IMG/VR virus record: IMGVR_UViG_2061766007_000422
Length of the DNA: 64,000 nucleotides
DNA from: an uncultured virus (IMG/VR IMGVR_UViG_2061766007_000422)
Taxonomy: Duplodnaviria; Heunggongvirae; Uroviricota; Caudoviricetes
Direction: 5' to 3' (one strand)
A program made the position numbers and the translations under genes. Position 1 is the stretch's first letter. The number at the start of each line of letters is the position of its first letter. Under the pieces are notes generated by a model that was not told where the DNA came from, did no database searches, and worked only from the letters and a program-made list of their open reading frames with translations. Below are positions 1,504-20,008 of the stretch, piece after piece.

Positions 1504-1504
1504 A

Positions 1505-1598: not shown

Positions 1599-1982
1599 CA
1601 GGGCCAAGTTGCGCGAAGTATGTATCCATACAGGGTAATATCTGTATCTGCGCCATTTAATATACCATATTACTTGACCTGACCCCTCACATTATATGAC
1701 CTAATATTCCATATTACATCATCTAATCTCCCTTTTCCTTATACTAATATTATACATCAAATTTCATAATAAGTCAAATAAATAATTTAATCAAATCTTA
1801 ACACAAAAATGCTTGAATTTTAACACAAGGTATGATATAATGAATAGGGGAAGAATGAAGAATGAATATATATAAAAATATCTCCCTCCCCAGTATAGCA
1901 TAATTATATTAAGATACAGGGTGAGTTGTGTAAAATATATGTTAAAATTTGGGCCGGCACGAAAGTTTACAGAAAGATAATA

Positions 1983-2216
1983 CTACATTTCTACATCAAG
2001 CGCTACACGCTCTATGGTGTATGCGCCCCTATAAGTATAATAAATTTCGCCCCATATAGTGACCTCTTTATCTATAATATGTTCAATGGTTTCATTGAAC
2101 ATTTTTTTAAGGGCAATTCGCGCGATTTCTATGGTGCTATACGCACCTAAAACGCCACCTTCATTATTTATTGCGTCCTCTGAGGGAAGATAAGAAACAA
2201 CATAAACGTAGTTCAT
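1983..2216 (-). CDS. Hypothetical protein
   Basis: Start moved to MNYV (RBS AAAGGAGAG). Confidence 0.7.
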   Translation of the reverse strand: MNYVYVVSYLPSEDAINNEGGVLGAYSTIEIARIALKKMFNETIEHIIDKEVTIWGEIYYTYRGAYTIERVALDVEM

Positions 2217-2229
2217 TTTTTCTCTCCTT

Positions 2230-2487
2230 TTAGTCAAAGAATAAAGATTCTAAATCAGTTTTAGTAAGAGTAATGAAAGTGCTAAATTCATTATAATTCG
2301 CGTCAAACCAAGATATTTCTGCGCCATCATTTTCTAAATATAAATCTTCTTTATATTCTTCTTGTTCTTTACCCTCTTGTCTTAACTCATACAGTTTGGC
2401 TTCTGCGCTTAATTTGTCGTGATAAAGTTCAAAAAAGTTATCGCCCTCATAGTTGTCATAAGTGATTACATATACAGTATCGTTCAT
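2230..2487 (-). CDS. Hypothetical acidic protein
   Basis: 85 aa ORF with RBS AGGAGAG and own promoter. Confidence 0.75.
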   Translation of the reverse strand: MNDTVYVITYDNYEGDNFFELYHDKLSAEAKLYELRQEGKEQEEYKEDLYLENDGAEISWFDANYNEFSTFITLTKTDLESLFFD

Positions 2488-2593
2488 TTTTTTCTCTCCT
2501 TTGTTTTTTGTATATTCATTATAGCGCGAAAATTCTAATTTGTCAAGTTAAAAGAATGTAAAAATTGCGGCCGGCCATAAATTAAAAGGACGA

Positions 2594-2797
2594 TTACTCG
2601 TCCTCATCATCACCTTCATAATTTTTTAGTCCATCTTCAAATGTGAGGGTATAATGTTGTGTCCAATCATAAGTATTAGCACATTTTGGGCAAAAACCTG
2701 TTACATAATGACGTATCATTTTACTATCGCTACTAATGTTATCGCAGTCTAAATCTTCTTCAATTAGTAAAGTGACATTACATTTGGGGCATTTCAT
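2594..2797 (-). CDS. Small Zn-ribbon protein (paralogue family A)
   Basis: CPKC...CPKC..Y.WTQ.Y; start MKCP after AAGGAG. Confidence 0.75.
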   Translation of the reverse strand: MKCPKCNVTLLIEEDLDCDNISSDSKMIRHYVTGFCPKCANTYDWTQHYTLTFEDGLKNYEGDDEDE

Positions 2798-2810
2798 ATT
2801 TTTATCTCCT

Positions 2811-3089
2811 TTATTTGTTATTAGTATAAATATTTTGAGAGTCAAGTAAAAACGAACCATCAAACGTATCGTTAAATTCTCCAAGTGATAAATTTTTTAT
2901 TGCTTGCTGCCAATTTTCACCAAAAATATCTTTAACGCTACTTGACCCATCATTACCATTGAAATAAAAAATTTCAGTATTTTCATTAAGCCAATCATAT
3001 TCAATTAGAAAATTGATAGCACTAATATAATTCATAGCAACTCTAATTAAACCATGATTTTCTTCGCTGATTAGGATAACATTATTCAT
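2811..3089 (-). CDS. Hypothetical protein
   Basis: 92 aa with RBS GAAGGAG and promoter. Confidence 0.75.
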   Translation of the reverse strand: MNNVILISEENHGLIRVAMNYISAINFLIEYDWLNENTEIFYFNGNDGSSSVKDIFGENWQQAIKNLSLGEFNDTFDGSFLLDSQNIYTNNK

Positions 3090-3144
3090 TACTTTTTATC
3101 TCCTTCATTTGATAAATCAATTATACCATAGAGAGGGGTATTTG

Positions 3145-3333
3145 TCAAGTTGAGATTATGTTATAAGGTGGGCGCAATCCTATTTTTAGTGGTCTTTTAT
3201 AATCTATCCAAGGTAAGTAATGCGTGCGCTTTAAGTAATTACGAGGGACGAATAAATCGCGCCATTCGCGCCAGTATTTTTTATTTATATTATTTTTAAT
3301 CTTGCTAATAGTACGTTTTCTTTTGGCTTTCAT
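3145..3333 (-). CDS. Small basic hypothetical protein
   Basis: 62 aa K/R-rich; RBS AAAGGAG and promoter. Confidence 0.6.
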   Translation of the reverse strand: MKAKRKRTISKIKNNINKKYWREWRDLFVPRNYLKRTHYLPWIDYKRPLKIGLRPPYNIIST

Positions 3334-3474
3334 TTTTTTCTTCTCCTTTGCTTTTTGTGATTATATTATAACACTGGATTAAAGAATTGTCAAGTTATAT
3401 TCATGTTAAGTTGGCGCCTGGTGGCAATTGAATTTGGACGTTTAACATCCAAATAATTAAAGGGCTTCGCGCCC

Positions 3475-3768
3475 TTATAGTATAGCATTTCTTTTTCTGC
3501 GCCAAAATCTCAAACCAAAAGGTATGCGTATGATATAATAATTACCAAACCATATTTCATGCCATACAATATCAGGGCACTTTGAACGAACATAGTATAT
3601 TTTGGCAGAAGGATTATCTTTAAAATAACCTATTCCTATGCGTTTATCATTTTGTCTAATAAGATTTTCTAAATCTTCTCTTACATCTGATGGAAGGGAA
3701 GGAATTTCTGTGCCCCAATAAAAGGAACAATGTTTTCTGTATCTGTTGTAATATTCAATAAAGCCCAT
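3475..3768 (-). CDS. Hypothetical protein
   Basis: Start MGFIE after GAAGGAG; promoter upstream. Confidence 0.7.
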   Translation of the reverse strand: MGFIEYYNRYRKHCSFYWGTEIPSLPSDVREDLENLIRQNDKRIGIGYFKDNPSAKIYYVRSKCPDIVWHEIWFGNYYIIRIPFGLRFWRRKRNAIL

Positions 3769-3842
3769 ATTTTTTATCTCCTTCATTTGATAGTTTGATT
3801 ATATCATAAAGTAAGTGATATGTCAAGTTAAGATTATGTTAT

Positions 3843-4025
3843 CTATTCAGGTTTAATTCCACATTCATCAGTAAGAGTATAACGCTGTAACCATGTATAC
3901 CATTTATGACATTTAGGACAACATCCTAATACTTCGATTGTAAAGTCATTGTAACGGTTGGGCCCACGATTATCCTCAATATCCTGAGCAATAAGAAGCT
4001 GATTTTTACATACGGGACAATACAT
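3843..4025 (-). CDS. Small Zn-ribbon protein (family A)
   Basis: CPVC...CPKC..YTWLQRY; start MYCP after AAGGAG. Confidence 0.75.
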   Translation of the reverse strand: MYCPVCKNQLLIAQDIEDNRGPNRYNDFTIEVLGCCPKCHKWYTWLQRYTLTDECGIKPE

Positions 4026-4134
4026 ACTTTTGTACTCCTTTTCTTTACTATAATTAGTATACCATTGAAAAGGCAAATTGTCAAGTTAAAATTATATAAA
4101 GTTGGCGCCGGCACGGATAAAAAGTTGAGGACGA

Positions 4135-4338
4135 TTATTCGTCGCCCTCGTCAGAATCATCTTCTAATTCTACTTCTTTTACAAGAGCATAGAACTGCGT
4201 CCATGTGTAGGGATGCGCGCACTCTCTGCATTTACCCATTACGCGCACTTCAATTGTATCAAATTGGGGGTGTTCTACAAAAAGGTCGCCAGTTGCATCG
4301 ATTCGCGCGCCACATTTGGGGCAATAAATCAAATTCAT
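4135..4338 (-). CDS. Small Zn-ribbon protein (family A)
   Basis: CPKC...CREC..YTWTQFY; RBS GAGGTG. Confidence 0.75.
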   Translation of the reverse strand: MNLIYCPKCGARIDATGDLFVEHPQFDTIEVRVMGKCRECAHPYTWTQFYALVKEVELEDDSDEGDE

Positions 4339-4350
4339 ATCCGTATTCGT

Positions 4351-4599
4351 TCACCTCTTATTTTCATCTGTTAATCTTCTTATTGTTTCTTCTGCCATGA
4401 GCGCAACGAGTGCATTTATTTCTTCTTCTCCAATAGTTTCATATATCAATTCACCATAAGTATTTTCTAATACTGAACGAGCGCATTCATCAAAAGAACG
4501 ATTTTGACTATCGACATACATTTTATATGCTTCTATTGAATAGTTTTCTATTTGATAATCATAGACTTCCATGACTGGTCTTAATTCCATTACTACCAT
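4351..4599 (-). CDS. Hypothetical protein
   Basis: 82 aa with RBS and promoter. Confidence 0.7.
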   Translation of the reverse strand: MVVMELRPVMEVYDYQIENYSIEAYKMYVDSQNRSFDECARSVLENTYGELIYETIGEEEINALVALMAEETIRRLTDENKR

Positions 4600-4713
4600 T
4601 GTTTGCGTTCCTTTCTTTTTGTATTATCATTATACTATGGAATGGGGAAGTTGTCAAGTTAAAAGAATGTTAATCGCGTGGCCGGCGCCATGTTAAGAAA
4701 AGGTAAAGAGGCC

Positions 4714-5049
4714 CTACTTGGCCTCTTTTTCCTTTATCTTGGCTTCGCGCTTGGCCTTGTCTGCTTCTGCCTTTTTAGCACGTTCCTGTGCCTTGCGCTG
4801 TTTCTCTGCCTGCGTATCCTTATAAAGTTTGATTTCACTTTCCATAAGTTCGCGCGCAGTCATATCTTCGCGCTCTTCTGCGACAATCGCGCCCAAACGC
4901 ACATAACGTTCTACACCATTCAAGTCAGTTAGGAGAATACCATACTGTCTATCATTGATTTTAACGAAAGGCCCATTTTCAACATCAAGTTCCTCAAACA
5001 CATGAACACGAAGGTCAGAGTCAATAACATTCTTAGAGATTTTAGCCAT
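4714..5049 (-). CDS. Hypothetical protein with K/A/E-rich C-terminal helix (family B)
   Basis: Resembles 10207-10605 (D.nG.E.y/f.V motif, KREAK tail). Confidence 0.8.
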   Translation of the reverse strand: MAKISKNVIDSDLRVHVFEELDVENGPFVKINDRQYGILLTDLNGVERYVRLGAIVAEEREDMTARELMESEIKLYKDTQAEKQRKAQERAKKAEADKAKREAKIKEKEAK

Positions 5050-5123
5050 AATTTTTTCCTTTCTGGTGTTTTAGTGTTTTCCTTCACTTTCTAAATATAT
5101 TATATCACAAAATTTGAAATTTG

Positions 5124-5243
5124 TCAAGTAAAAATTTCTTTAATTAGAAATTTTACAACGATATAACAAGCGCCAAAAAACGCGACAAAAGGCGCAAGAG
5201 GAAATGCCCAAGAGGGAACACGCAAGCGTAAATTCATAGTCAT
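5124..5243 (-). CDS. Small membrane peptide (39 aa)
   Basis: Read manually: MTMNLRLRVPSWAFPLAPFVAFFGACYIVVKFLIKEIFT; RBS AAAGGAG and promoter. Confidence 0.6.
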   Translation of the reverse strand: MTMNLRLRVPSWAFPLAPFVAFFGACYIVVKFLIKEIFT

Positions 5244-5350
5244 AGTTTAATTTCTCCTTTGCTTTACTATAATCATTATACTACCTACTTCCCATTTTGT
5301 CAAGTTAAATAATTGTTAAGATGGCCGCCGGCGCGAAAATTAACGAGAAA

Positions 5351-6049
5351 TTAACCCTCGTTAATTTCTCGCTTAACATCTGTCCAACAGTAGGGACGAA
5401 TACCCATACCTTTAGGAAAATCGTTATAATTTTGTAAACAATAATTCATAATTTCTTGCTCAATTTTAACATCTTCTAAACCTTTGTGTTCTTCTGAAAA
5501 TAAGGGGTTATTTGTTAAGAAAGCATAAACTGTTTGTGCATTTGCTCTATAATTCTTCCCATTATTTGAAATAAATCCATAATTTTCTGCAAACTCTTTA
5601 TACTCTTTTGTTTGACATATAGTTTGGCAAGCCATATTCCATATACAAACAAATTCTGTATCGTAAGGGAAAAACCATCTAAATCTTGACTTTGTTAAAT
5701 ATCTTAAGGTATTGTTAAGTGCGTTTCTGTCAAACCTACAATTATATGCTACAACAGTTTTACAATTATATTGCGCCATTTCGTCAAGAATTATTCGCCT
5801 TGCTCCCATAAAACTAAACATTTCACGCTCTTTATGCTGTATATCTGTAATATATTCGTCAATTTTATCAGCATAATATGCTTCTTTTACAACGTCACGC
5901 ATATCACAAAAAATATCACGAACCACAAAAGCGTGTTCTGTTAAGATTGTGTTATCAAGCGTGACTAAACGAGTAGAAATATCATAAGTTAAGGCGCAAT
6001 CAGTATCATTAGCAGTTTCAACGTCTACGAGGAGTTTGTTTTCAGTCAT
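5351..6049 (-). CDS. DEDDh-family 3'-5' exonuclease
   Basis: ExoI DVET, ExoII AYNCRFD, ExoIII HKGLED. Confidence 0.85.
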   Translation of the reverse strand: MTENKLLVDVETANDTDCALTYDISTRLVTLDNTILTEHAFVVRDIFCDMRDVVKEAYYADKIDEYITDIQHKEREMFSFMGARRIILDEMAQYNCKTVVAYNCRFDRNALNNTLRYLTKSRFRWFFPYDTEFVCIWNMACQTICQTKEYKEFAENYGFISNNGKNYRANAQTVYAFLTNNPLFSEEHKGLEDVKIEQEIMNYCLQNYNDFPKGMGIRPYCWTDVKREINEG

Positions 6050-6200
6050 TTTTTTCTTTGTTCCTTTCGTTTTTACAGTTATGATTATAACATTCTTGCC
6101 TCATTTTGTCAAGTAAACTCTTTGTTAAGTGGCGCGCCGGCCCGAAATTTAACATAATCTTAACATTAAATATAAAAAGAGGGCGTAAGCCCTCTTGGAC

Positions 6201-6539
6201 TTACGCCTTGGTGTATTGATTAGCACCCTTGGCATTCTCAATCTTTACCACTTCATCATTCCAGTAGTGGAGAAGCGCGTACTGTATCTTGGACTTAGAG
6301 AAGTCAGTAGGCAGAGCGTCAACACAAGCGTTAAAGATTTCAGTTACAGTCATGGGAGTATCACTCATTACTTCCATTACAGCGTCATGCGCAGCAGCGT
6401 ACAGCTCGCGATTAGCCTGCGCCTTCTCTTCGCCCTTTTCGCGCTCAGCTCGCAGGTCAGCAACAGCGTCAGCGATGGACTCAGGAATGTCAGTGGCTTC
6501 AAAGTAGTTGGTCAGAGCGATAAGAGTGGACTTCTTCAT
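6201..6539 (-). CDS. Putative winged-helix DNA-binding protein (family C)
   Basis: N-terminal helix plus PMTVTEIF..LP.DFS.SKIQY.L...KG.N.Y; paralogue of 7522 and 11245. Confidence 0.7.
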   Translation of the reverse strand: MKKSTLIALTNYFEATDIPESIADAVADLRAEREKGEEKAQANRELYAAAHDAVMEVMSDTPMTVTEIFNACVDALPTDFSKSKIQYALLHYWNDEVVKIENAKGANQYTKA

Positions 6540-6618
6540 AGGTTGTACCTTTCTGGTTTTGTAAAGAGTTTTCCTTCTCTTATTTACATTTTTATTATAT
6601 CACAATTTTGTAGATTTG

Positions 6619-7104
6619 TCAAGTAATAAATGAAAAATTTGCTTGAATTTTACGTTTAGGAGTTAATTGATATTTTATATATTTATATATTGTTTTAGTA
6701 TCAATCTGGAAATGTTTTGCGCATTCTGTAATTGTATCGTATATTTCTATTGCTCCATTTGTAAATTCTACTTTAACTTTTTGTCGTCTTTTATGATTTA
6801 AATTTAATCTATACTGTGTATTTTCTTCTGAAGTACACCATTCTAAATTTGATAGCATATTGTTATTTATATTACAATCAATATGATTAACTTCTAAATT
6901 TTCCATATTCTCACAAGGTGAAAAAGTTTCTAAAACCAATCTATGGATTCTTTTCATATATCCTTTGTGTTCTTTCCAGAGTTGAACAATTTTATAGCCT
7001 TCTTGATTTTGACAAATTGAAAGTAATTTATTAGTTTGATTATTTTTAATTTCACCAATATCTGAGATAGAATAGTTTGGGAAATCTTTAATTACTTTCC
7101 ACAT
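6619..7104 (-). CDS. NUMOD4-HNH homing endonuclease
   Basis: WKVIKDFPNYSISDIG (NUMOD4), HRLV..EVNHID..NN..NLEW (HNH), C-terminal NUMOD1-like HTH. Confidence 0.9.
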   Translation of the reverse strand: MWKVIKDFPNYSISDIGEIKNNQTNKLLSICQNQEGYKIVQLWKEHKGYMKRIHRLVLETFSPCENMENLEVNHIDCNINNNMLSNLEWCTSEENTQYRLNLNHKRRQKVKVEFTNGAIEIYDTITECAKHFQIDTKTIYKYIKYQLTPKRKIQANFSFIT

Positions 7105-7288
7105 ATTGTTTTCCTCCTTGTTATATTATCCTTTTCCTTGTCCTTTTGTAATTATATTATAGCACAGATTGTGCGCTATGTCAAGTTAAGAGTTTGTTAA
7201 GCACTTATTCTCTTACCCTTTTATTTCGTGCCACCCTGCTTATCCACAGCATAATATGCCTGATACAAGTTTCTCAAGGGTACAGGGG

Positions 7289-7379
7289 GTTCTTGAGGGT
7301 TTTTGTGGAGTTTAGCCTTTTTATTTTTTTTCGAAGTCGAAAGCCAATGCTGTTTCGCTCTGACCTCTCCCTCAAGAAC
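7289..7379 (-). ncRNA. Putative structured small RNA
   Basis: Promoter TTGACA 7409-7414/TATACT 7386-7391; terminal inverted repeat GTTCTTGAGGG (7289-7299)/CCCTCAAGAAC (7369-7379); no credible ORF. Confidence 0.55.
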
Positions 7380-7521
7380 AATATAAGTATATCATAAATT
7401 TGGGATTTTGTCAATAGTTTGGAATGTTAAAGGTTTGTTAAGTTCGCGTCCGGCCGCAAATTTAACGTAAAATTAACGTTGGGCGCAAAAAGAAAAGGGT
7501 CGCATAGCGACCCTTTAGAGT

Positions 7522-7914
7522 TTAACCTACCAACTGATAGGTGTTAGGCTTACCCTTGACCTCAGTCTTAGTCAGTTCAACAGCCATCTCACGAATGAGA
7601 ATGTTCTGCACTTTCTGCCAACTAAAGTCAGAGGGCAACTCGTTCTTGGCAACCTCAAACAGCTCCTTAGCAGTCAGAGGATTGCTCAGATACTTGCGAA
7701 GCACAGGAGTAACCTTGGCGAGCAGCTCGCTCCTCGCAGCAGCAGTTTCAGCCTTGCGCTTGGCACTCAGCTCAGCCTTCTTCTCCTCACTCATAGGAGT
7801 GCGAGCCTTTTCAAGTCCTTCAAGCATCTTCTGAAGGGTTTCCACAGCCTCATCGTTAGCATTGTCAATGGACAGGACAGCGATAGCTCTTTCGATAGCG
7901 TTCTTCTTAGTCAT
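7522..7914 (-). CDS. Putative winged-helix DNA-binding protein (family C)
   Basis: PLTAKELF..LPSDFSWQKVQNIL..KGKPNTY. Confidence 0.7.
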   Translation of the reverse strand: MTKKNAIERAIAVLSIDNANDEAVETLQKMLEGLEKARTPMSEEKKAELSAKRKAETAAARSELLAKVTPVLRKYLSNPLTAKELFEVAKNELPSDFSWQKVQNILIREMAVELTKTEVKGKPNTYQLVG

Positions 7915-8007
7915 AATGTTGTTACCTTTCTCGTTTTTGAGAGTGTCGTTCTCTTTTTGATGTATTCATTATACCATTGATTTGGTAGAATGTCAAGTTA
8001 ATTGTTT

Positions 8008-8062
8008 GTTAAGTGAGGGACTTTTTGTTTTGTGAGAGAGGAGTTTGTGTCCCTCACTTAAC
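8008..8062 (-). ncRNA. Putative hairpin small RNA
   Basis: Perfect 14-bp stem 8008-8021/8049-8062 starting at the predicted +1 of promoter 8069-8097. Confidence 0.6.
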
Positions 8063-8109
8063 GTATTTATTATATCACAGTTTTCAAGGTTTGTCAAGTC
8101 TTTTCTTTG

Positions 8110-8164
8110 TTAAGATTTTGAGAGAGGGGTGTTGGTGAGGGAGTTTGTTTTCCCTCAACCAACA
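8110..8164 (-). ncRNA. Putative hairpin small RNA (related to 8008-8062)
   Basis: Stem 8130-8142/8151-8164 at the +1 of promoter 8170-8198; shares ACAAACUCC and CUCUCUC. Confidence 0.55.
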
Positions 8165-8286
8165 ATAACATTATATCGCAAGTTTCCCAAATTGTCAATA
8201 GTTTTGCGCGTTAAGAGTATGTTAAGTTTGGCGCCGGCACATTGATTAACAGAACTATAACAAATTCTGTTAATCATAATTGCGTT

Positions 8287-8466
8287 CTATACATAATATT
8301 TTTTACATTCCCATATCAATCCATTATAGTGTAGTATTTGCGCGCTTAATGAATGTTGGTAATGTGCTTTAAAATATGTGTATGCTTCTGTTTTGTTATA
8401 AAAATATATACGAGTATTTTTGCCATCCCATCCTGTAATGTAAACACACCATTTCATTGTGGTCAT
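8287..8466 (-). CDS. Hypothetical protein (59 aa)
   Basis: Read manually MTTMKWCVYITGWDG...KKYYV; RBS AAGGGG. Confidence 0.6.
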   Translation of the reverse strand: MTTMKWCVYITGWDGKNTRIYFYNKTEAYTYFKAHYQHSLSAQILHYNGLIWECKKYYV

Positions 8467-8469
8467 ATA

Positions 8470-8715
8470 TTATCCCCTTTTTCCATGATTGATTCTAATT
8501 TTTATACGATGTCTTTTCAAAGCAACATGAATGAAGTGTTTTTTCTTCTTCGCTGCACGATACATCGCCATCAGACAATTTTTGTTATTGGCTGACTTAC
8601 AATTATCAACATTGATACCACCCCACCATATTTTATTCATCATAGGGTCATAATTATACTGCCTGCCATAAAGGATAGATAAATCTGTGAAATAGCGCCA
8701 TTTACTTCTACTCAT
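8470..8715 (-). CDS. Basic hypothetical protein
   Basis: 81 aa with RBS. Confidence 0.65.
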   Translation of the reverse strand: MSRSKWRYFTDLSILYGRQYNYDPMMNKIWWGGINVDNCKSANNKNCLMAMYRAAKKKKHFIHVALKRHRIKIRINHGKRG

Positions 8716-8732
8716 GTTCCTGTTTCCTTTTC

Positions 8733-9317: not shown

Positions 9318-9427
9318 AATTTTTTCTCCTTGTTTTTTGTAATTAAATTATATCATATAAAGATATAGTTGTCAAGTTAATTATATGTAAAATGGAAGGC
9401 CGGCGCGAAAGTGGGCGCGAAGCCCAC

Positions 9428-10106: not shown

Positions 10107-10206
10107 AATTCCCTCACTTTCTATAACTATTATATCGCGCGATTATTTATTTGTCAAGTTAATTGTATGTAAATTAAGGCGCCGGCCGCGAATTTAACGA
10201 AGGCGA

Positions 10207-10605
10207 TTACTCGCCTTCGTGTATCATTGCTTCAAGTCCTTTTTTATTCAAGTCTTTAATAACTTTTTTGGCTTCTCGCTTTGCTTCTCTTGCTTTTGCT
10301 TCTGCTTCCTTTTTAGCCTTGCTTGCGTCTTTCTTCGCTTGCTTTGCTTCAAGTTCTGCTTTGTAGTCCTCTGCGAGTCCATAACCATCATAGTCATCGT
10401 AACCACCTGCGCCATTACGAGTGCCACGAGGAATTGAAACTTTGATTAACACAAACTTTTCATTTCCTTCTGCGTCAAGAACAGGGATAGTAAGTTCGCT
10501 TGCACTAATAGGCAAAACATCTGTTTCATATTTGGTTTGTATTGCGTCTGTTATAAACTGAATAAATTCTACTCTGAGGGCAGTTTCCAAACTTGCTTTG
10601 CTCAT
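10207..10605 (-). CDS. Hypothetical protein (family B)
   Basis: Start MSKA after AAAGGAG; paralogue of 4714-5049. Confidence 0.8.
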   Translation of the reverse strand: MSKASLETALRVEFIQFITDAIQTKYETDVLPISASELTIPVLDAEGNEKFVLIKVSIPRGTRNGAGGYDDYDGYGLAEDYKAELEAKQAKKDASKAKKEAEAKAREAKREAKKVIKDLNKKGLEAMIHEGE

Positions 10606-11088: not shown

Positions 11089-11244
11089 AACAGACCAAAT
11101 TCCTTTCTTTTGATATATAAATTATACCAAAGTCTGTTTTATCTGTCAAGTAAATTTTGTGTTAAAATGGCGGCCGGCCTCGCGCTTAACATGAAATTAA
11201 CAATGTAAATAAAAAAACAGACCCTAAAGGGTCTGTTAAGAGGG

Positions 11245-12323: not shown

Positions 12324-12501
12324 TTCCTTTTCCTCCTTTGTTTTCATACTTCAATTATATCACAAATTCCTTATATGTCAATACCTTATTTGTAAACTTT
12401 GTGTAAATTCTGGCGCCGGGCCGCGATTTAACTTGTTTTTAACTTGACAAAAACATCTTCATCCCTTATAATTGTAGTATCAAATGAGAAGGGATAAAGC
12501 G

Positions 12502-13005: not shown

Positions 13006-13063
13006 CGCGCGCATTTGTTAATTTTAGATTGAAATTGCGGCCGGCCCGCAACTTAACGCTCAG

Positions 13064-13543
13064 TTAACACTGAGCGTCAAGCCACGAAATCATAAAGCGA
13101 GAAGCACTTTTAAATCTAATTTTAGGCTCGTGCGTTTTGCTGTCTCTGTCAAGTCTGGTGAATAAGCGCACAAAATTACCAAACTCTTTTTTATTCATCC
13201 ACCATTCGCTCGTTTCGGCGGTTTTATCATCAAAATCTACGAACACAAACACAGAAGAATGAACTTTTTTAAAGAAGGTTTTAATCTGTTCGTTGGTCGT
13301 GCCGTGAAGGTCACGGGCGAGGGAGGCGTTAGCACTCTTTACGCTTGCGTTATATTCTTCAATGTCGCTACCATTATCATAAGAAGTAGAAGGATTGGTT
13401 TCCGTGTATAAACCTAAACGCTCTTTTACAAGACTTTCGGCAAGCTGCCCATGGTTTTGATTGTGTCCATTTACAAGGTAGCGGGCGCCACTATGGGTAG
13501 TGTGAGTAAAATTCAAGGTGGAAATGTAAGTTATCTTTTTCAT
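13064..13543 (-). CDS. Putative PD-(D/E)xK-like protein (family D)
   Basis: NHGQLAE..GSDI..SVKS..ASL pattern. Confidence 0.6.
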   Translation of the reverse strand: MKKITYISTLNFTHTTHSGARYLVNGHNQNHGQLAESLVKERLGLYTETNPSTSYDNGSDIEEYNASVKSANASLARDLHGTTNEQIKTFFKKVHSSVFVFVDFDDKTAETSEWWMNKKEFGNFVRLFTRLDRDSKTHEPKIRFKSASRFMISWLDAQC

Positions 13544-13609
13544 TGCGGTGTCTCCTCTCGTTTCTTTCTGTAATTATTATACCATCAGTCGGTGGCTATG
13601 TCAAGTTAA

Positions 13610-14050
13610 TTAAATGTTAAGAAGTGTTTCGTAAATCTGTATTGGCTCGTATGCTTTGCCTGTCCACGTGAGACGATTTTTTTCTTCATCATCAAAAAGT
13701 ATGTCATATGGAGAAGTGGCAAAATTCTGCTTGGGCGTGCCATGCGCTACAATCTGAATTTCATCCCATTTGACGCTTGGCAAGTGTTTTTTTAGCCAGC
13801 TCGCCTTTGCCTGCGTAACCTCTTGGTCGTAGCTTGCCTGAGGCTCTTTGCTTAGCCAGCTCACAATACCTATGCGCCAGCCCTCAGCTTGCGCCTTGTG
13901 GAGCAGTCGCGCCAGCTTGCTCATATTCAGCATAGGCTTTGCTTGTATGTAAGGCGTGGCATCATAGGCGCGAAGCATAGCAAGCCAGTTGTCTACGCCA
14001 TAGAGGTCTGCTATTGTGCCATCCATATCAAACCAAATCGTGCCTTTCAT
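13610..14050 (-). CDS. HAD-family 5'(3')-deoxyribonucleotidase-like phosphatase
   Basis: DMDGTIAD, K..WL..H.P, ILFDD. Confidence 0.85.
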   Translation of the reverse strand: MKGTIWFDMDGTIADLYGVDNWLAMLRAYDATPYIQAKPMLNMSKLARLLHKAQAEGWRIGIVSWLSKEPQASYDQEVTQAKASWLKKHLPSVKWDEIQIVAHGTPKQNFATSPYDILFDDEEKNRLTWTGKAYEPIQIYETLLNI

Positions 14051-14162
14051 TGTCTTGTTTCCTTTCCTGTTTTGTGATTACATTATACCATGCGGACTTG
14101 TGATTGTCAAGTTAAGACTCTGTTAAGTTCGGCGCCGGTCAATTTGTTAACATAGACGTAAC

Positions 14163-14412
14163 AGACGCACTCAAAACGAGTGCGCCCATTAAAAAGAAAG
14201 AGAGGGATAGGGTTGCTTCGTCCATCTGCGCTTCCAACCCTTGCGCAGTATCTTTGGTCTACTGGATTAACGTGGGGATAGGTTGCCATTGACCATGGTT
14301 AGTCTTAGGACACGACTTTATAGGTCTTACTGCGCTCAAATAGCGACTTACTGCCAACCTATTGCGAAGAGTGACCTTGTTCACTCCACGCTGAGGGTTT
14401 CTCCCTCAGAAC
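14163..14412 (-). ncRNA. Putative structured RNA of about 250 nt
   Basis: Promoter 14419-14447; stems 14391-14397/14403-14409, 14278-14285/14355-14362, 14209-14215/14235-14241; terminal hairpin 14167-14184. Confidence 0.5.
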
Positions 14413-14507
14413 AATATCATTATAGCATCTTATTCCTATATTGTCAAGTTAAGAGTACGTTAAGCCGCTGGCCGGCGCGATAGTTAACAAAAATGAAACA
14501 AAGGGGA

Positions 14508-14711
14508 CTATCTCATCCCCTGTATTCTGACATTGTGCAGTATCACAACTTCATTCCCAAGCTGATTCAGTTCCTTTGCAATCTGGTCTGCTCTGTGGCC
14601 ACTGGTGTATGCGCTGAAGAACCAGTATTCACCATTTACCACACGGCACACTTCAAACTCGTACTTCTTAGCGTAGTCAGGCTCGTTGTTAACTCTAATA
14701 ATCTTTTCCAT
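14508..14711 (-). CDS. Hypothetical protein
   Basis: Start MEKII after GAGGA. Confidence 0.7.
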   Translation of the reverse strand: MEKIIRVNNEPDYAKKYEFEVCRVVNGEYWFFSAYTSGHRADQIAKELNQLGNEVVILHNVRIQGMR

Positions 14712-14800
14712 GTTTTTTCTCCTCTCACTTTCTGTATCCATTATAACCGATAAGGTCAAATCTGTCAAGTTAAGCTTCTGTTAACTTCCGGGCCGGGAGC

Positions 14801-15253
14801 TCACGCTCCCACATGGGAGAGCGTGCGCTCGTTAGTCAGCTCTGCGCTGTCGAATTTTATTTGAACCTTCAGCCCCTCAAGCTTTATATCACCGTCCACG
14901 TAGAACGGAACGCTGTCCTTGATCCAGTGCTGTCCGTTCAGGTCGTGTATCAAGTGTTCGTAGTGCTCGCCCCTGTTATACTGGTCATCGTAGTCGAGCA
15001 AGGTCTCAGCTCCAAGCTTAACCGCCATACCGCAGTTAATCAGACGGGTCTTTGCCCAGTTATCGAAGCTCAGCCTTAGCTTCGCCCACCCGCCACGCTT
15101 GCTTGCCATGCGCCCAAGCTTGATGCTGTCCATCACAGGTTCCAGGCTGTCCGTCTCCACGCTGTAGAGTTCGCCGTGGAATACAAACCCGAAGTTGTAT
15201 TTGTCCGCCACGCTCAGCTCTTCGTATCTTTTCAGCATTTCTTCTCTCGTCAT
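14801..15253 (-). CDS. Putative PD-(D/E)xK-like protein (family D)
   Basis: NRGEHYE..GDI...VQIKF..AEL.NERT; paralogue of 20479-20946. Confidence 0.7.
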   Translation of the reverse strand: MTREEMLKRYEELSVADKYNFGFVFHGELYSVETDSLEPVMDSIKLGRMASKRGGWAKLRLSFDNWAKTRLINCGMAVKLGAETLLDYDDQYNRGEHYEHLIHDLNGQHWIKDSVPFYVDGDIKLEGLKVQIKFDSAELTNERTLSHVGA

Positions 15254-15530
15254 TGTCCCGTTCTCCTCTCTCTTTTTTGTAATTACATTATATCACCGCG
15301 GAAGTATTTTGTCAACCCTTTTTTGTGTAAATTTGAGGTTAATTTGCGCGCCGGTCCAACACTTAACATGTTCTTAACATATAGGGTATACTTCCCCCTG
15401 TCCCTCCCTCCGGTGCAATTATATTATATCATATCGGTGAGATCGTGTCAATACTTTTTGTGTTAAGTGTATGTTAAAAACGCGGCCGGCGCGCATCTTA
15501 ATACGCCGTTAACAAACGAGGACCGACCCG

Positions 15531-15692
15531 TTAGTACAGGTCGGTCCAGTCGCCCTGGGCGAGGAGCGCGTCGGCTTCGCGCTCGCGCATCCCCTGCTCC
15601 CACTCGTCCGCGTAAATCGCGGCGAGGTCTTCGGGCGTGAGGATTTCATCCTCGCCCAGTTCGGTGTCGGCGTCCATCCAATATTCTTCCAT
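15531..15692 (-). CDS. Highly acidic peptide (family E, 53 aa)
   Basis: MEEYWMDADTELGEDEILTPEDLAAIYADEWEQGMREREADALLAQGDWTDLY; RBS and promoter. Confidence 0.75.
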   Translation of the reverse strand: MEEYWMDADTELGEDEILTPEDLAAIYADEWEQGMREREADALLAQGDWTDLY

Positions 15693-15752
15693 TGTTGTTT
15701 TCTCCTCTCATTTGATGATTACATTATATCACTGTTTAGCCGGTATGTCAAG

Positions 15753-15926
15753 TTAAGAAATGATTAAGTCTTGTTCGTAAAGACAGCAAGTGCCCGTTTT
15801 GTCATAAGATATACACACAACTGCGTCATGTGCATCTGCGTGCGCCCAAAGTCTATCGAGTAATTCTTTGGACAATTCTGAGGCGGTCTCAATAACAACA
15901 TTATTAGGGTCAAGCACTTTTATCAT
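15753..15926 (-). CDS. Hypothetical protein (57 aa)
   Basis: MIKVLDPNNVVIETASE...; RBS AGGAGG and promoter. Confidence 0.6.
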   Translation of the reverse strand: MIKVLDPNNVVIETASELSKELLDRLWAHADAHDAVVCISYDKTGTCCLYEQDLIIS

Positions 15927-16098
15927 AGTTTTTCTCCTCCTGTTTGATGGTTTTATTATATCACTTTCCGGTCATATTGTCAAGAGGGGTGTGTGTTAAT
16001 TATATGTTAAAAACATGGCCGGCGCGATTTTTAACGCGCCCTTAACAAAAGGGCGCGATCATCCGGAGGCACGCCCTGGAAGTAGCGGAAGCGGGGAC

Positions 16099-16308
16099 TT
16101 ACCAGTCCCCGCCGTCATCCCACTGGGAGAGCAGAAGGTCTTCCGCTTTCCGCTCCAATATCATTTGCTCCCATTCGCCTTCCGCGATGGCTTCCAGTTC
16201 CTCCGGGGAGAGGACTTCATCTTCATCCTCGTACTCATCCCACTCCTCGAAGTCTTCCCAGGACTCCTCGCCGATTTCGGTGTCCGCCATCATCCAATAC
16301 TGTTCCAT
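16099..16308 (-). CDS. Highly acidic peptide (family E, 69 aa)
   Basis: Start MEQYW after AGAGGAG; 28 D/E versus 2 K/R. Confidence 0.75.
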   Translation of the reverse strand: MEQYWMMADTEIGEESWEDFEEWDEYEDEDEVLSPEELEAIAEGEWEQMILERKAEDLLLSQWDDGGDW

Positions 16309-16425
16309 GTGTTTTCTCCTCTCTCTTCTTGATGATACTATTATAGCACGTCCAGGGTAGTTTGTCAATGGGTTGTTTGTGAAGATTGTGTTAATCCCGG
16401 ATGTCCTGGTGGTCGATGATGTATA

Positions 16426-16570
16426 GTGTTGGTGAGATTGGCTCCCTCTGCCGTCGCTCCTGCGGTCGGTGGCACTGAATTTCACAAGCCGTCTAAGGGT
16501 ATTGTCAGGACTTACATCGCTCACGTGGGCTTCGGCTCCTGCCGTGGCCTTGCCGTCCCTCACTCAACAC
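16426..16570 (-). ncRNA. Putative structured RNA of about 145 nt
   Basis: Promoter 16575-16603; ends pair (GTGTTGGTGAG 16426-16436/CTCACTCAACAC 16559-16570); GC-rich interior. Confidence 0.5.
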
Positions 16571-16604
16571 GTATATTATAACCGATTTGTGCTCGTCTGT
16601 CAAG

Positions 16605-16805
16605 TTAAGAGTTGGTTAACTGCGCTTTGCGCTCCAGGCGCTTCTTTCGACACCGGTAAGACATAAAACGATCAAAGCACCAAAACGCAATCCAGGCAAG
16701 AAAGCGCCAGGGCCATTTATTATCGCAACTCCAGAACCAGCAGAAAAAAAGCATAACGGACACAAGGCTAGAAAACAGATTATAAGATAAGCGGTTAAAG
16801 ATCAT
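16605..16805 (-). CDS. Small membrane protein
   Basis: 66 aa hydrophobic; RBS GGGAGG and promoter. Confidence 0.55.
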   Translation of the reverse strand: MIFNRLSYNLFSSLVSVMLFFCWFWSCDNKWPWRFLAWIAFWCFDRFMSYRCRKKRLERKAQLTNS

Positions 16806-16992
16806 ACTAATTACCTCCCGGTTGATGATACAATTATAACAGACTTTGGTCTGTTTGTCAATGGGGTAGATGTTAATTCCGTGTTAAGGTGCGGGCCGGT
16901 CCGACTTTTAACCTGGATTTAACATTTAAACTATTGACATGCCGGTGCTACTGTGTTATAATTGTATCATCAAGAGAGAGGAGAACAACCCC

Positions 16993-17148
16993 ATGAAAAA
17001 GATATTCGTTGTGATGTGCCACGTCCCGGAAGGAACTTTTTCCCTGTCCTGTATGTCCTCTGAGATAGACGCTGTGGAATGCGTCGCCTACATGACGGCG
17101 ATTGACCCCTCCGCCTCCTATTGGTACGAAGTGAGAGAGGGCACCTAA
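16993..17148 (+). CDS. Hypothetical protein
   Basis: Start MKKIF after GAGGAG; promoter 16934-16962. Confidence 0.65.
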   Translation: MKKIFVVMCHVPEGTFSLSCMSSEIDAVECVAYMTAIDPSASYWYEVREGT

Positions 17149-17247
17149 GGCGCCCTCCGTCCCGGAGGATTTCTTAACACCGATTTAACTTGACACCCCG
17201 GTTATTCTGCTGTATAATGATATCATCAAATGAAGGGAGAAAATACC

Positions 17248-17424
17248 ATGTATACGATTCTGAGAGTTTATGGAGACTTTGTTACTGTGACCGAGACTGC
17301 CGATAATATCGCAAACATATTCGGCGCGTGTGCCGTCTATGCTGAAGACCCTAATCTGATAGTTCTTAAGGCCTGGAACTCAAAAGATGGAACTGTGATA
17401 GTAGATTACTACTGGGGTGCATGA
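17248..17424 (+). CDS. Hypothetical protein
   Basis: Start MYTIL after AAGGGAG; promoter 17190-17218. Confidence 0.65.
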   Translation: MYTILRVYGDFVTVTETADNIANIFGACAVYAEDPNLIVLKAWNSKDGTVIVDYYWGA

Positions 17425-17618
17425 GGATATGGGCGCCGATGGCGCCCATTTATTTTTGCGGGTGCGTTCTAAAATAAAATTGAAATTACGCGCGCATTAT
17501 GGGAAATGTTAAGAACCGCGCCGGCCAGACTTTTAACATGAAATTAACATTGAAATGTGTTGACATTTTGGGGGTGCCGGTGTTATAATAGTGTCATCAA
17601 ATGAAGGGGGATTTCAAA

Positions 17619-17924
17619 ATGAAATGTATTGCCGATTTATACTATGATAACGTGACTCGTAAATGGTATGACTATCCTGTGCGCCCGGAGGCGTTTCACT
17701 ACGATGGTATGGCGCATCAAGGCAAAACAATCCATATCTATCACCAGGACGGCAATTGCTCTATCGGTTTTATGTTTGGAGAAAAACAATACACTTTTGA
17801 CCCAGACGAACTGATAAGGCATCGCGCTGACTATCAAGCAAAACGGAAAGCGTTACACGAAAGAAACCAACTGTTAGCCAGGATTGCCACTTATGATGAT
17901 GAAACACTCTCTCTCATTGTTTAA
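17619..17924 (+). CDS. Hypothetical protein
   Basis: Start MKCIA; promoter 17560-17589. Confidence 0.7.
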   Translation: MKCIADLYYDNVTRKWYDYPVRPEAFHYDGMAHQGKTIHIYHQDGNCSIGFMFGEKQYTFDPDELIRHRADYQAKRKALHERNQLLARIATYDDETLSLIV

Positions 17925-18059
17925 TTGGTGGAAAAGGAAAAAGGGGATTGATAAAATTCCCCTCTTTTTTTTATTACCCGGTTACTTTTACACTTTAGCG
18001 TGCTAAAGTGCCACGGACTATAAAACGTGGAGTTGTTACCAAACTCCACGAAAAGGGGA

Positions 18060-18257
18060 CTACTTATTAGTGTACTTTATTATTCCTCTCATAATCGCGC
18101 GAATCACCTGCACTAGTGAAATGAGGAAAAACAGTTTGAAACCAAATGGAGGCAAATTAAATTCCCACGCTATTATCCCCCAAATTTCTGCGATAACTAG
18201 GGGAAGGATAACTAATTTAATGCTAAACGTGACGATGGCGCTAATAAGTGTCTTCAT
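18060..18257 (-). CDS. Small two-TM membrane protein
   Basis: 65 aa hydrophobic; RBS and promoter. Confidence 0.65.
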   Translation of the reverse strand: MKTLISAIVTFSIKLVILPLVIAEIWGIIAWEFNLPPFGFKLFFLISLVQVIRAIMRGIIKYTNK

Positions 18258-18405
18258 GGTGTGAAATCTCCTCTCTTTTTTATGCCCCTATTATATCACC
18301 CATTTATCCGGGTGTCAATAGTTTTTATGTTAAATGCGTGTTAAAAAGGCGGCCGGCCGCGATCTTAATCTGAAATTAACAATGGCGCGAAAAAAAGAGT
18401 TTGGA

Positions 18406-18573
18406 CTATTCAAGTCCAAACTCTTCGGGGTTGGCGTTGATGTACGCCTGGATGTATTCCCAAACCCCAGTGGCATCGGCGCCATTTTCAAATTGCGTGA
18501 AAACTTCAATAGTTACATCGGCTTCAAATCCAAATGCCTTAATTGCGAAATCCTGTACATTTTCTTTAGTCAT
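18406..18573 (-). CDS. Acidic hypothetical protein
   Basis: Start MTKEN after GGAGG. Confidence 0.65.
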   Translation of the reverse strand: MTKENVQDFAIKAFGFEADVTIEVFTQFENGADATGVWEYIQAYINANPEEFGLE

Positions 18574-18683
18574 TGTTTTGTCCTCCCTCATTTTCTAGAT
18601 AAATTATATCATATAATCTGGCCGGTGTCAATAGGTTGAATGTTAATAGTGTGTTAATGATTTCTTCCGGTGCGTGATGCCCT

Positions 18684-18965
18684 TTACAAGGGCATCACTT
18701 CGCCTGTCTCAATGTTCATCTTTAGTCCATCTTGCCAAAGTGATTTGGCTGTGTAATAGTCAAATCCCAACGCACGCATAAACCACCCGATGTGTTTTAT
18801 GGTAGTGCGTGAATATGTGCCAGTACAACGCAACCAATTATTCTCAATGATAACCACATCCGTGGAATAACTACGAAGAGTTATATCTCCATTGGTGTAG
18901 TGGATGACGCCACATTGCGCGTATTTGTGTCCGTTGATGTATGCTGTGTAGTCGTAGTGCTTCAT
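18684..18965 (-). CDS. Hypothetical phage protein
   Basis: 93 aa; LRSYST.V..TGTYSRTT.KHI..F motif. Confidence 0.75.
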   Translation of the reverse strand: MKHYDYTAYINGHKYAQCGVIHYTNGDITLRSYSTDVVIIENNWLRCTGTYSRTTIKHIGWFMRALGFDYYTAKSLWQDGLKMNIETGEVMPL

Positions 18966-19214
18966 TGTTTTGTTCTCCTCTCTCTTGATGCTTCAATTAT
19001 ACCGCATTAACCGTCTGTTGTCAATACCTTGTATGTAAAGAGTTGGTTAAGTTTCGCGCCGGCCAATCGCTTAACACTCCTATAACATAGGGAAGAGCGC
19101 TTGCGCGCTCTTCACTCCATTGTCTTGATATACTCTTCTGCGTCTACCTTTTCTATGATGTATACATTATATCATGTTTGCGCCCGCAAGTCAAGTTAAG
19201 AGTTTGTTAAGTCG

Positions 19215-19523
19215 TTAGCAGTACACTAACGACATATCAGACCACTTAAGCACACTTATTTGATTATGCTCTCTGCCCACTTTCAACGCTTCGGTTTTTG
19301 TTGCTACTCTATGAGATTTATCTATATAGTACACGCCATCACTGTACCACACGCCGCAGTTGCCATTCATGCGCTTCATTGCTTCAACCGCTTCATTTAT
19401 ATCTTTCGTCTCTATTCCTTCGGTCGCTACTTGATAACCCGTCTTATAGATCACTTCATTAAACGCCTTCATGGTCAATCCGTCATTGTTGTTCAGTGTG
19501 CTCAGTCTTTCATAAAGTGTCAT
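19215..19523 (-). CDS. Hypothetical phage protein
   Basis: Start MTLYE; G.W....YYID.S..V....EA...G...NQIS motif. Confidence 0.75.
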   Translation of the reverse strand: MTLYERLSTLNNNDGLTMKAFNEVIYKTGYQVATEGIETKDINEAVEAMKRMNGNCGVWYSDGVYYIDKSHRVATKTEALKVGREHNQISVLKWSDMSLVYC

Positions 19524-19681
19524 TGCTTTATTGCCCCTCTCATTTGATGATATAATTATATTATATTCCGGAGGATTTGTCAATACCTACAATGTTAATT
19601 GTTCATTAACTTTGGCGCCAGCAGTCAATACTTTTACCCGCGCAGAGCTTAACGCAGCCGTAGCACAGGTTGAGGAGAGCC

Positions 19682-19855
19682 TCAGCTCTCCTCAATGTAG
19701 GTCATCTTGTCAATGACCAGCCCGCCTTCTAGCTCCCATTGGCCATAGTCGTGATCCAGCGCCCAACCCATAGCGCCGTCATAGGTCTTGCAGGTCTTTA
19801 AGTTGCGACAGGTATCCGCAGTGCGCACGATGTAAACAGTGATGGTCTTTTTCAT
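19682..19855 (-). CDS. Hypothetical protein (57 aa)
   Basis: MKKTITVYIVRTADT...IEES; stop lies inside hairpin 19670-19695. Confidence 0.6.
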   Translation of the reverse strand: MKKTITVYIVRTADTCRNLKTCKTYDGAMGWALDHDYGQWELEGGLVIDKMTYIEES

Positions 19856-20008
19856 AGGTCTTGTCCTCTCTCTTTAGGCTTCGCCTAATTATACCGCATT
19901 CAGCCGATTATTGCAAGCACTTTACAAACTTTTAACATTCGCGCACGGCAAGATCGTTAACCCGGATTTAACATTATAGACAAAAAAATAAAGGGCTTTA
20001 CAGCCCTT

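Follow-up and report, generated by a model that had tools for sequence, protein, structure and literature searches.

The stretch of DNA considered here, 64,000 nucleotides from an uncultured virus of the Caudoviricetes (IMG/VR record IMGVR_UViG_2061766007_000422), is called the window. Close to its left end lies an array of 18 kb with about 40 small ORFan genes, and most of the open reading frames (ORFs) in it belong to no Pfam or PHROG family. The left boundary of the array is a ResIII helicase-like gene on the plus strand (120..1475), which is collinear with its counterpart in the related complete genome G002, while the right boundary is a sigma-factor-like gene on the same strand (21540..22832; phrog_5767), which is kept in all six whole relatives examined. 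Between positions 1930 and 19972 the array is punctuated by a 52-bp dyad, GTTAA-N6-GTTAA-N8-CCGG-N8-TTAAC-N6-TTAAC, in which two inverted arms of two boxes each surround a central palindrome, and by consensus promoters. The dyad is probably a composite operator on early promoters, bound as double-stranded DNA by protein. Searches of the available literature turned up no description of this motif.

Four exact copies of the pattern occur in the 64-kb window, against none in 100 shuffles, and 20 copies have no more than six mismatches in the 24 fixed positions. A position weight matrix trained on these 20 copies gives 23 matches of at least 12 bits, all of them between 1930 and 19972, so that the other 44 kb have none; the top score in 20 shuffled windows is 4.4 bits. 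The matches beyond the 20 copies are weak extra copies at 3394, 4658 and 9376. An earlier interpretation made from the letters of this DNA alone, called the sequence-only reading below, had counted at least 23 copies and had seen none outside about 1.9-21.4 kb, and both statements hold, since the matrix finds nothing between 20 and 64 kb. The matrix scan that it had proposed, run on the window and its relatives, confines the motif to one region in the window and in G002.

The boxes are invariant in the 20 copies except at the third base, which is T or A (GTTAA or GTAAA). The core is GCCGGC within a GC-rich stretch, with G24 in 18, C25 in 19, C26 to G28 in all and C29 in 16 of the 20 copies. 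The spacer positions do vary, as the sequence-only reading had stated, but not freely everywhere, as the bases that flank CCGG are constrained. Among 202 distinct sites from the window and its relatives, mirror positions of the spacers are no more complementary than column composition predicts and have low mutual information. The 52-mers themselves fold no better than shuffled sequences, with mean z values of -0.66 as RNA and -0.81 as DNA, and z is below -2 in only 2 and 3 of the 20 copies, respectively. Since the mirror positions do not covary and folding is weak, the dyad is a double-stranded site, presumably for a protein, and not a hairpin, as had already been proposed from arms that are not complementary beyond the boxes. 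The folded single strand with paired arms that characterizes attC-type sites is likewise not found in the 202 sites or in the folding of the 20 52-mers.

The array contains 43 perfect sigma-70/sigma-A consensus promoters (TTGACA-N16-18-TATAAT), 39 on the minus strand and four on the plus strand, most with a TG extension, and the rest of the window contains none. A promoter that scores at least 10 of 12 lies within 11 bp of 18 of the 20 dyads, the exceptions being those at 1930 and 13017. The pair of boxes next to the promoter, TTWAC-N6-TTWAC, accompanies 40 of the 43 perfect promoters, abutting the -35 hexamer in 26 and standing 10-11 bp off in 14; this proximal pair occupies -37 to -52, the position of an UP element. 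A CCGG in register is present at 22 of the 43 and the full dyad at 17, and 23 have half-elements. The unit is nested, with the promoter and the proximal pair followed by the core and then by the distal pair. The terminator of the preceding unit often sits just outside the element, and these hairpins are distinct from the dyad and lack sequence conservation.

The spacing between element and promoter is quantized. In the window and 15 relatives' contigs together there are 263 dyads, which form 233 dyad-promoter pairs; counted from the dyad axis, the -35 hexamer begins at a distance of 26 bp in 126 pairs, 36 or 37 bp in 44, 48 bp in 4 and 41 or 42 bp in 22. The last class is a variant with a flipped proximal arm, which occurs in the G002 clade and is absent from the window. 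In relatives A to F, which belong to that clade, four to six sites per genome have all four boxes in the same direction (FFFF or RRRR), with the promoter 41 or 42 bp from the axis. If TATAAT is taken as -12 to -7, which assumes the start site, the dyad axis would be centred at -61.5, -71.5/-72.5 and -83.5. Because these steps are of 11 bp, the site would stay on one face of the helix.

The individual copies, given here with their mismatches in the 24 fixed bases and with the offset between the dyad and the -35 hexamer of the neighbouring promoter, fall into a few classes. Offset 0 to a promoter on the minus strand is found for the dyads at 2547..2598 (five mismatches, with a degenerate distal arm), 5304..5355 (exact), 6113..6164 (one mismatch), 10158..10209 (six mismatches, without the outer distal box), 11150..11201 (one), 14111..14162 (one) and 14448..14499 (two). 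An offset of 10 to a minus-strand promoter is found at 15462..15513 (one mismatch), 18329..18380 (one) and 19035..19086 (two), and an offset of 11 at 7426..7477 (exact), 8210..8261 (one mismatch), 15327..15378 (one) and 15995..16046 (exact). The promoter of the dyad at 7426 is TTGACA-17-TATACT, and the terminator of the upstream unit is at 7494-7516. The dyad at 17497..17548 (four mismatches) has a plus-strand promoter at offset 11. Two dyads stand between divergent perfect promoters: that at 12392..12443 (two mismatches) has offset 10 on the minus and 0 on the plus strand, and that at 16872..16923 (exact) has offset 10 on each side. The dyads at 1930..1981 (four mismatches, 42.4 bits) and 13017..13068 (two mismatches) have no neighbouring consensus promoter. 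The copy at 19921..19972 (six mismatches, 22.1 bits) has the core CACGGC and a weak promoter, TTGCAA-17-TATAAT. Of the weak copies, that at 3394..3445 (13.2 bits) retains the promoter-side box pair and has lost the core, while those at 4658..4709 (17.3 bits) and 9376..9427 (15.8 bits) retain the proximal pair and CCGG and have lost the distal boxes.

The first bases of the -35 hexamers of the perfect promoters on the minus strand are at 2546, 3148, 3393, 3826, 4657, 5127, 5303, 6112, 6622, 7184, 7996, 8097, 8198, 8938, 9375, 9948, 10157, 10663, 10917, 11149, 11739, 12016, 12175, 12381, 13604, 14110, 14447, 14768, 15315, 15451, 15751, 15983, 16368, 16603, 16861, 18318, 18631, 19024 and 19583, and those on the plus strand are at 12444, 16934, 17190 and 17560. 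Three of the minus-strand promoters, in 7968-8198, are 101 bp apart (-35 at 8198, 8097 and 7996), and downstream of each comes a short stretch, similar in all three, that can form a hairpin and has no ORF. These may be tandem small RNAs; an Rfam scan at gathering thresholds gives no family in the whole window, this segment included. Long leaders follow the promoters at 5127, 6622, 7184, 9948, 11739 and 16603, where the start codon is about 48-55 nucleotides past the -10 hexamer, compared with about 30 elsewhere. Several of them have a similar purine-rich stretch ending in ...aaaccagaaagg, which may be a common translational control element. The G+C content changes from 32-38% to 42-47% at about 14 kb (1930-14000 compared with 14000-20000). 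The offset between dyad and promoter is mostly 0 before this shift and mostly 10 or 11 past 15 kb, and the array may have been pieced together from two sources.

The element is shared by a group of related phages. The exact motif is found in 15 IMG/VR contigs, and with up to three mismatches five relatives have 36, 15, 9, 39 and 10 copies, while the control with the reversed pattern gives none. In G002, a complete genome of 169 kb, all 30 matrix matches fall within 135.6-157.4 kb, flanked by the genes that also bound the array of the window. No copy of the motif is present in Phass-1, whose capsid protein marks it as a distant relative. In the genomes of 185,579 prokaryote species, a scan that demanded an exact match at all 24 fixed bases finds two copies, both on phage-array contigs in one metagenome-assembled genome bin of the Acutalibacteraceae. 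This bin provides a weak lead to the host, and the scan reveals no host regulon.

Although these phages share a backbone, they do not all have the same centre. A search in which all palindromic tetramers and spacings were scanned finds the N8/CCGG layout as the only form in the window and in G001 to G004 (15, then 30, 14, 8 and 42 copies). G006 has instead 22 copies of GTWAA-N9-ACGT-N9-TTWAC, and G007 has 17 copies of the N9 layout with a CCGG centre. The sites of G006 and G007 have AT-rich ATTA shoulders, and neither genome has an N8/CCGG site, even though their sigma-like proteins are 90% and 82% identical, respectively, to that of G002. Each of these whole genomes (the window, G001 to G004, G006 and G007) thus has one architecture. 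Exact N9 sites occur in 13 contigs with ACGT and in 13 with CCGG, five of them with both, and none of the resulting 21 contigs is among the 15 with N8 sites. When orthologous promoters of G002 and G006 are compared, the alignment extends through the gene, the leader, the -35 hexamer and the two proximal boxes, and the differences are confined to what lies between the inner boxes. A concerted, genome-wide difference that is limited to the centre is expected from a trans-acting factor of matching specificity, and not from a structural element or from recombination filler. The presence of one specificity in each genome and of another at the same positions in related genomes would, as far as the alignments tell, correspond to the pattern of an immunity-like system.

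A candidate for such a factor comes from a presence/absence screen of the 245 ORFs of G002, in which two proteins are shared with G001, G003 and G004 but not with G006 or G007. One of them, here called family X (150-175 amino acids), also has two copies in the window, both on the minus strand. The first (20479..20964, 161 amino acids) is at the end of the array by the sigma-like gene, and the second (14801..15253, 150 amino acids), a paralogue 33% identical to the first, lies downstream of the dyad at 15327, whose minus-strand promoter drives it. A copy is found just upstream of the sigma-like gene in G002 and G003 as well as in the window. Of the 20 viral contigs that encode family X, none has an N9 site and eight have exact N8 sites. 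The numbers of GCCGGC inside and outside the array are 17 and 5 in the window, 20 and 5 in G002, 43 and 7 in G004, 12 and 11 in G003, 3 and 16 in G006, and 0 and 6 in G007, so that strong enrichment of this hexamer goes with arrays of genomes that have family X and is not seen in those without it. Five further family X contigs (G011 to G015, of which G014 is complete) come from more distant relatives and lack the boxes; in about half of their promoters GCCGGC stands upstream, 13-85 bp away. Each of their arrays (1-40000 in G014) has between 20 and 47 strong promoters; the distance to GCCGGC varies, and phased A-tracts take the place of the TTAAC boxes, which would make this a fourth variant of the scheme. 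Family X is accordingly a candidate for the factor that may read the GCCGGC centre, by association and not by demonstration. Its AlphaFold model has a predicted local distance difference score (pLDDT) of 82 and a predicted template modelling score (pTM) of 0.77. There is no usable match in the ESM Atlas, and among 111 metagenome homologues none is named or has a Pfam domain.

Several other proteins were considered as readers. A winged-helix protein of the MarR type (119 amino acids in G002) is kept by every one of the six whole relatives but is not found in Phass-1, which lacks the motif; as a type-specific binder it was rejected, since it is 99% and 88% identical in G006 and G007, which both lack the N8 site. 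A protein resembling HTH_36 and DnaD is not universal among the relatives. The second protein of the screen, with 80 amino acids in G002, has the presence pattern of family X and is not among the protein matches between the window and G002. A protein found only in G006 and G007, beside the sigma-like gene, was set aside because its coding strand is ambiguous and its two ORFs align poorly (28%). A scan with this protein matched nothing but the protein itself, and the same holds for the G006-specific protein of 198 amino acids.

The array has a high turnover of genes. Six close relatives, with 80-90% nucleotide identity, are collinear apart from cassette-sized indels, and among their 34 pairwise insertion events many junction alignments overlap by 10-131 bp, as is typical of a repeat at both ends. 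The window and G002 share 19 reciprocal best hits outside the array, all in the same order (Kendall tau 1.00), and six inside it, with a tau of 0.47; for five other relatives tau is 0.43-0.81. Homology ends fall within -100 to +60 of a -35 hexamer in 49% of cases, compared with 27% of random positions, the 1012 ends being drawn from 30 ordered pairs and not independent. In a three-way view, one chimeric dyad switches parent at CCGGccc (G002 array 13245-13708 compared with G003), one deletion joins a -35 hexamer to the next CCGG and ends at the edge of that CCGG, one crossover lies to the left of the core, and one homing-endonuclease gene is inserted with its own promoter unit. The insertion in contig F (IMGVR 3300031867_000812, 13774-14423) is of this last kind: the 5' end of a nucleotidase gene, intact in relatives, has given way to a homing-endonuclease-like gene that has a promoter unit of its own, so that endonuclease mobility also feeds the turnover of the array. 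Since the element, promoter and leader form a repeat of about 130 bp that recurs more than 40 times, substrates for homologous recombination are plentiful, and the turnover is likely to proceed by repeat-mediated homologous recombination of the PeSL kind, with no dedicated recombinase needed.

The sequence-only reading had gone further and taken the dyads for crossover sites of site-specific recombination, at which promoter-gene cassettes would be excised, inverted or exchanged. Such a function would suit the symmetric layout around a fixed core, the fast change of gene content, the clean chimeric dyad at CCGGccc and the deletion junction at the edge of CCGG. A marker test on flank and spacer segments, whose figures are counts of pairs among six close relatives and not independent events, shows breaks at every boundary: besides HHHH (24), breaks in the middle of the element are common (HH?n 16, nnHH 9 and, more rarely, HHnn 2), but other boundaries break as often (Hnnn 13, HHHn 8 and, among the rarer patterns, nHHH 5, nnnH 2 and others). 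Some breakpoints do fall at CCGG, as had been foreseen, with no clear preference for it over the other boundaries. In 55 ORFs of the window there is no tyrosine or serine recombinase domain, as that reading had itself observed, and its expectation of a recombinase elsewhere in the genome fails in the records of the five relatives, four of them 91-100% complete, where neither PF00589 (Phage_integrase) nor PF00239 (Resolvase) is found while the controls are positive in 14 and 12 of 14 genomes. Nor is there a homologue of MrpR (YopR), as the best E value in a tblastn search of the window and six whole relatives with yopR of SPBc2 is 0.28. Collinear order between relatives, which had been named as evidence against cassette exchange, is found apart from the indels, but the order within the array is kept only in part relative to G002. 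Orthologous elements hold their place in G002 and G006, and neither the phasing to the -35 hexamer nor the half-elements at 23 of the 43 promoters would have a role in a crossover site. The dyads do mark promoter-gene units, but their site-specific excision or exchange is not supported, and a crossover function is most unlikely. It is also improbable, if less so, that the main role of the element is that of a PeSL-like mobile cassette, which would provide portable homology for the shuffling of ORFans and in which boxes and core would be mere conserved filler. The PeSLs of T4-type phages comprise about 50 consensus sigma-70 early promoters with conserved upstream sequence in plastic regions upstream of ORFans, where turnover occurs by general recombination between repeated regulatory units (PMC2839356). 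The array resembles them in having a consensus sigma-70-type promoter within the repeat, in being plastic upstream of ORFans and in having indels between close relatives that are bounded by the repeat; the junction overlaps and the enrichment of homology ends near the unit point in the same direction. PeSLs contain a stem-loop, however, while the dyad shows no selection for pairing in either the pairing or the folding tests, and they belong to another phage lineage and another host phylum. Exchange between neighbouring PeSL repeats gives rise to mini-circles. Portable homology also leaves unexplained why conserved boxes stand beside free spacer positions, why they are phased to the -35 hexamer in 11-bp steps, and why each genome has a single type of centre that is replaced by itself at orthologous sites.

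A host protein is a possible, though rather doubtful, alternative as the reader of the whole element. The arms would then be tandem sites of the OmpR/PhoB type, similar to those of WalR or PhoP, or an UP-like element for the C-terminal domain of the RNA polymerase alpha subunit. The tandem hexamer consensus of WalR is given as TGTWAH-N5-TGTWAH (PMC4168254), and like WalR/VicR and PhoP sites each arm has two TGTWAH hexamers with an 11-bp period upstream of the -35 hexamer. This consensus is matched exactly by 14 of 40 arms and with at most one mismatch by 30, and the exact form occurs 1.10 times per kb in the array, compared with 0.07 in the rest of the window. Variation within the boxes is limited to T or A at the W position, the proximal pair is placed as an UP element would be, and the G014-type relatives have A-tracts in the same place. 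The B. subtilis PhoP repeat is TTAACA, although a literature search found no paper with that word. Unlike WalR or PhoP sites, however, the two arms are inverted around a conserved palindrome and are carried by a phage in tens of copies. A host protein explains neither the GCCGGC centre nor its exchange, in relatives with many genes in common, for ACGT or CCGG flanked on either side by a further base, and the scan of prokaryote genomes for exact matches at the 24 fixed bases finds no four-box element in host chromosomes. A nuclease target is a very improbable alternative. Family X would in that case be a small GCCGGC-specific endonuclease, and breaks at the dyads would stimulate recombination and homogenize the elements. 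Family X co-occurs with GCCGGC-rich arrays, and its invariant residues E104, D120, D129 and K140 may correspond to a nuclease motif. GCCGGC is rare outside the arrays, with only five copies in 147 kb of G002, but composition predicts 3.9 in G002 and 1.5 for the five found outside the array in the window, so that the hexamer is at or above expectation and is not avoided. The family X model matches no nuclease fold and the family has no database match, and with 20-40 targets in the phage's own genome such a nuclease would require a means of protection, of which none is seen.

The coupling to promoters and the phasing favour the operator, which the sequence-only reading had mentioned as its alternative in the form of a four-box operator for a phage regulator. 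In a composite operator, the boxes, common to all relatives that have any, would set on which helical face, relative to RNA polymerase, the site lies; possible readers of them are the alpha C-terminal domain, an OmpR-type regulator of the host and a conserved phage protein. The centre would be the determinant of specificity, read by a dimeric phage-encoded factor for which family X is the candidate. Such a factor would control the early promoters as a group, most likely by shutting them off after the early phase or by silencing a superinfecting phage of the same type; silencing is favoured because promoters of this strength need it more than they need activation. Recombination between the repeats, by which gene cassettes may be added, deleted and moved, would be a side effect and not the function.

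Several points weigh against the composite operator. Perfect consensus promoters need no activator, and 21 of the 43 have no centre, so that the centre is not required for promoter function; the choice between repression and activation is pure inference. The dyads at 1930 and 13017 have no promoter beside them, and axis positions such as -61.5 depend on the assumed start site. The mixture of ACGT and CCGG centres in five of the N9 contigs indicates that the centre is not always of a single type. Family X has no recognizable DNA-binding domain or fold, no match in Pfam or PHROG and, for its model, no Foldseek match in the PDB at E<=1e-3, the best VIA-align Z being 3.1. Its association with GCCGGC is based on few independent lineages, and it is also found in genomes whose arrays have no TTAAC boxes. 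The MarR-like protein is not type-specific, so that it would at most read the shared boxes.

Among known systems, the SPBRE of Bacillus phage SPbeta is close in its arrangement. It is a 15-bp motif at 10 ChAP-seq peaks that is bound by MrpR (PMC10516654). Like the dyad, SPBRE is a short element that recurs at the promoters of many early genes in a large siphovirus of Firmicutes, and the capsid protein of the window has distant relatives in SPbeta-like phages. In SPbeta one phage protein binds the element and co-controls the early genes, whereas here such a factor is only a candidate. The dyad also differs from the 15-bp SPBRE in being a four-box element of 52 bp, with 20-40 copies per genome. 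Since five relatives have no recombinase domain, maintenance of lysogeny is an unlikely role, unlike that of SPBRE and MrpR.

In class I activation, CAP is centred at -61.5, -71.5 or -82.5. The positions proposed for the dyad axis under the assumed start site resemble this geometry, as they would lie on one helical face, but the promoters of the array already match the consensus, and repression or over-stabilization of the polymerase is as likely as activation. Lambdoid phages have heteroimmune pairs of operator and repressor, and KorB of plasmid RK2 is a global regulator with many operators. As in these systems, the array has many operators with one specificity per genome, and related genomes differ at the same positions. 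The differences are that the phage is apparently virulent, that the operators are upstream of the -35 hexamer and not over the promoter, and that the factor is a candidate.

The rest of the window is in keeping with a large tailed phage. Its large ORFs encode the portal and other virion proteins, a tape measure of 4227 amino acids, the sigma-factor-like protein, a RuvC-like resolvase, a dUTPase, the anaerobic ribonucleotide reductase NrdD and homing endonucleases. The capsid-region protein has distant tblastn matches, with 23-42% identity, in Phass-1, in large Enterococcus phages and in SPbeta-like phages, while a megablast search of 1-20000 against phage records gives no match and a scan of the window for tRNAs finds none. 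In G002, a Pfam scan of the 126 ORFs of at least 70 amino acids in 27.8-135.2 kb finds gyrase, DnaB, ribonucleotide reductase, ligase, many GIY-YIG endonucleases, PG_binding_1 lysins and an r1t-type holin, and no integrase, a content that suggests a virulent phage of a Gram-positive host. The phage is probably a large virulent siphovirus, distantly similar to SPbeta, with a Firmicute as host. Sequencing runs labelled as bovine gut metagenome contain its sequence, and parts of 5001-15000 are present in 16 runs of DNA type and in no RNA run among those listed.

Some features outside the array have their own interest. The tape measure gene is at 36303-48986, and the collinear or longest ORF has 5129 amino acids in G002 and 5612 in G007, lengths that imply an exceptionally long tail. 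NrdD is split on the minus strand (61078-62382 and 63624-63947, in the region 61078-63998), with an endonuclease gene at 62570-63496 between the two parts, which suggests an intron or an endonuclease insertion. Masked bases, as short runs of N inside structural genes (24110-24140, 26491-26517, 27051-27077, 36181-36203 and 49238-49278) interrupt the portal ORF and adjacent ones in lists of ORFs. By capsid protein, the closest relative with a name is Phass-1 (OQ749652.1), which is filed under a 'code 15 clade'; the long late ORFs of the window end in ordinary TAA, TGA and TAG codons, with no sign of recoding.

Multi-copy operators of early genes, as in SPBRE and MrpR, and promoter cassettes that shuffle ORFans, as in PeSLs, are both known, and the element would combine the two in large gut phages that have not been studied. 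It adds to them a strict four-box layout phased to the -35 hexamer, about 40 perfect promoters in 18 kb, and interchangeable centres at the same promoters. A wider proposal, which is tentative and on balance rather unlikely to hold as a whole, is that virulent rumen-type phages of about 160-180 kb run their early programme via 20-40 modular operators, with pairs of centre and factor as regulatory 'immunity types' and with centres that gene conversion between the repeats homogenizes over dozens of orthologous sites. The boxes would dock the site to RNA polymerase, while the exchangeable palindrome (GCCGGC in the N8 form, ACGT or CCGG in the N9 form) would be read by a small phage protein of undescribed fold, which for GCCGGC would be family X, and a phage would thereby silence the early genes of a superinfecting phage that shares its type, along with its own. 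The motif is a specific marker for this phage group in metagenomes, and the element with its promoters offers candidate parts that are compact, very strong and perhaps switchable in Firmicutes. The interchangeable centres provide a natural experiment for finding the cognate factor and for testing immunity-like types in lytic phages.

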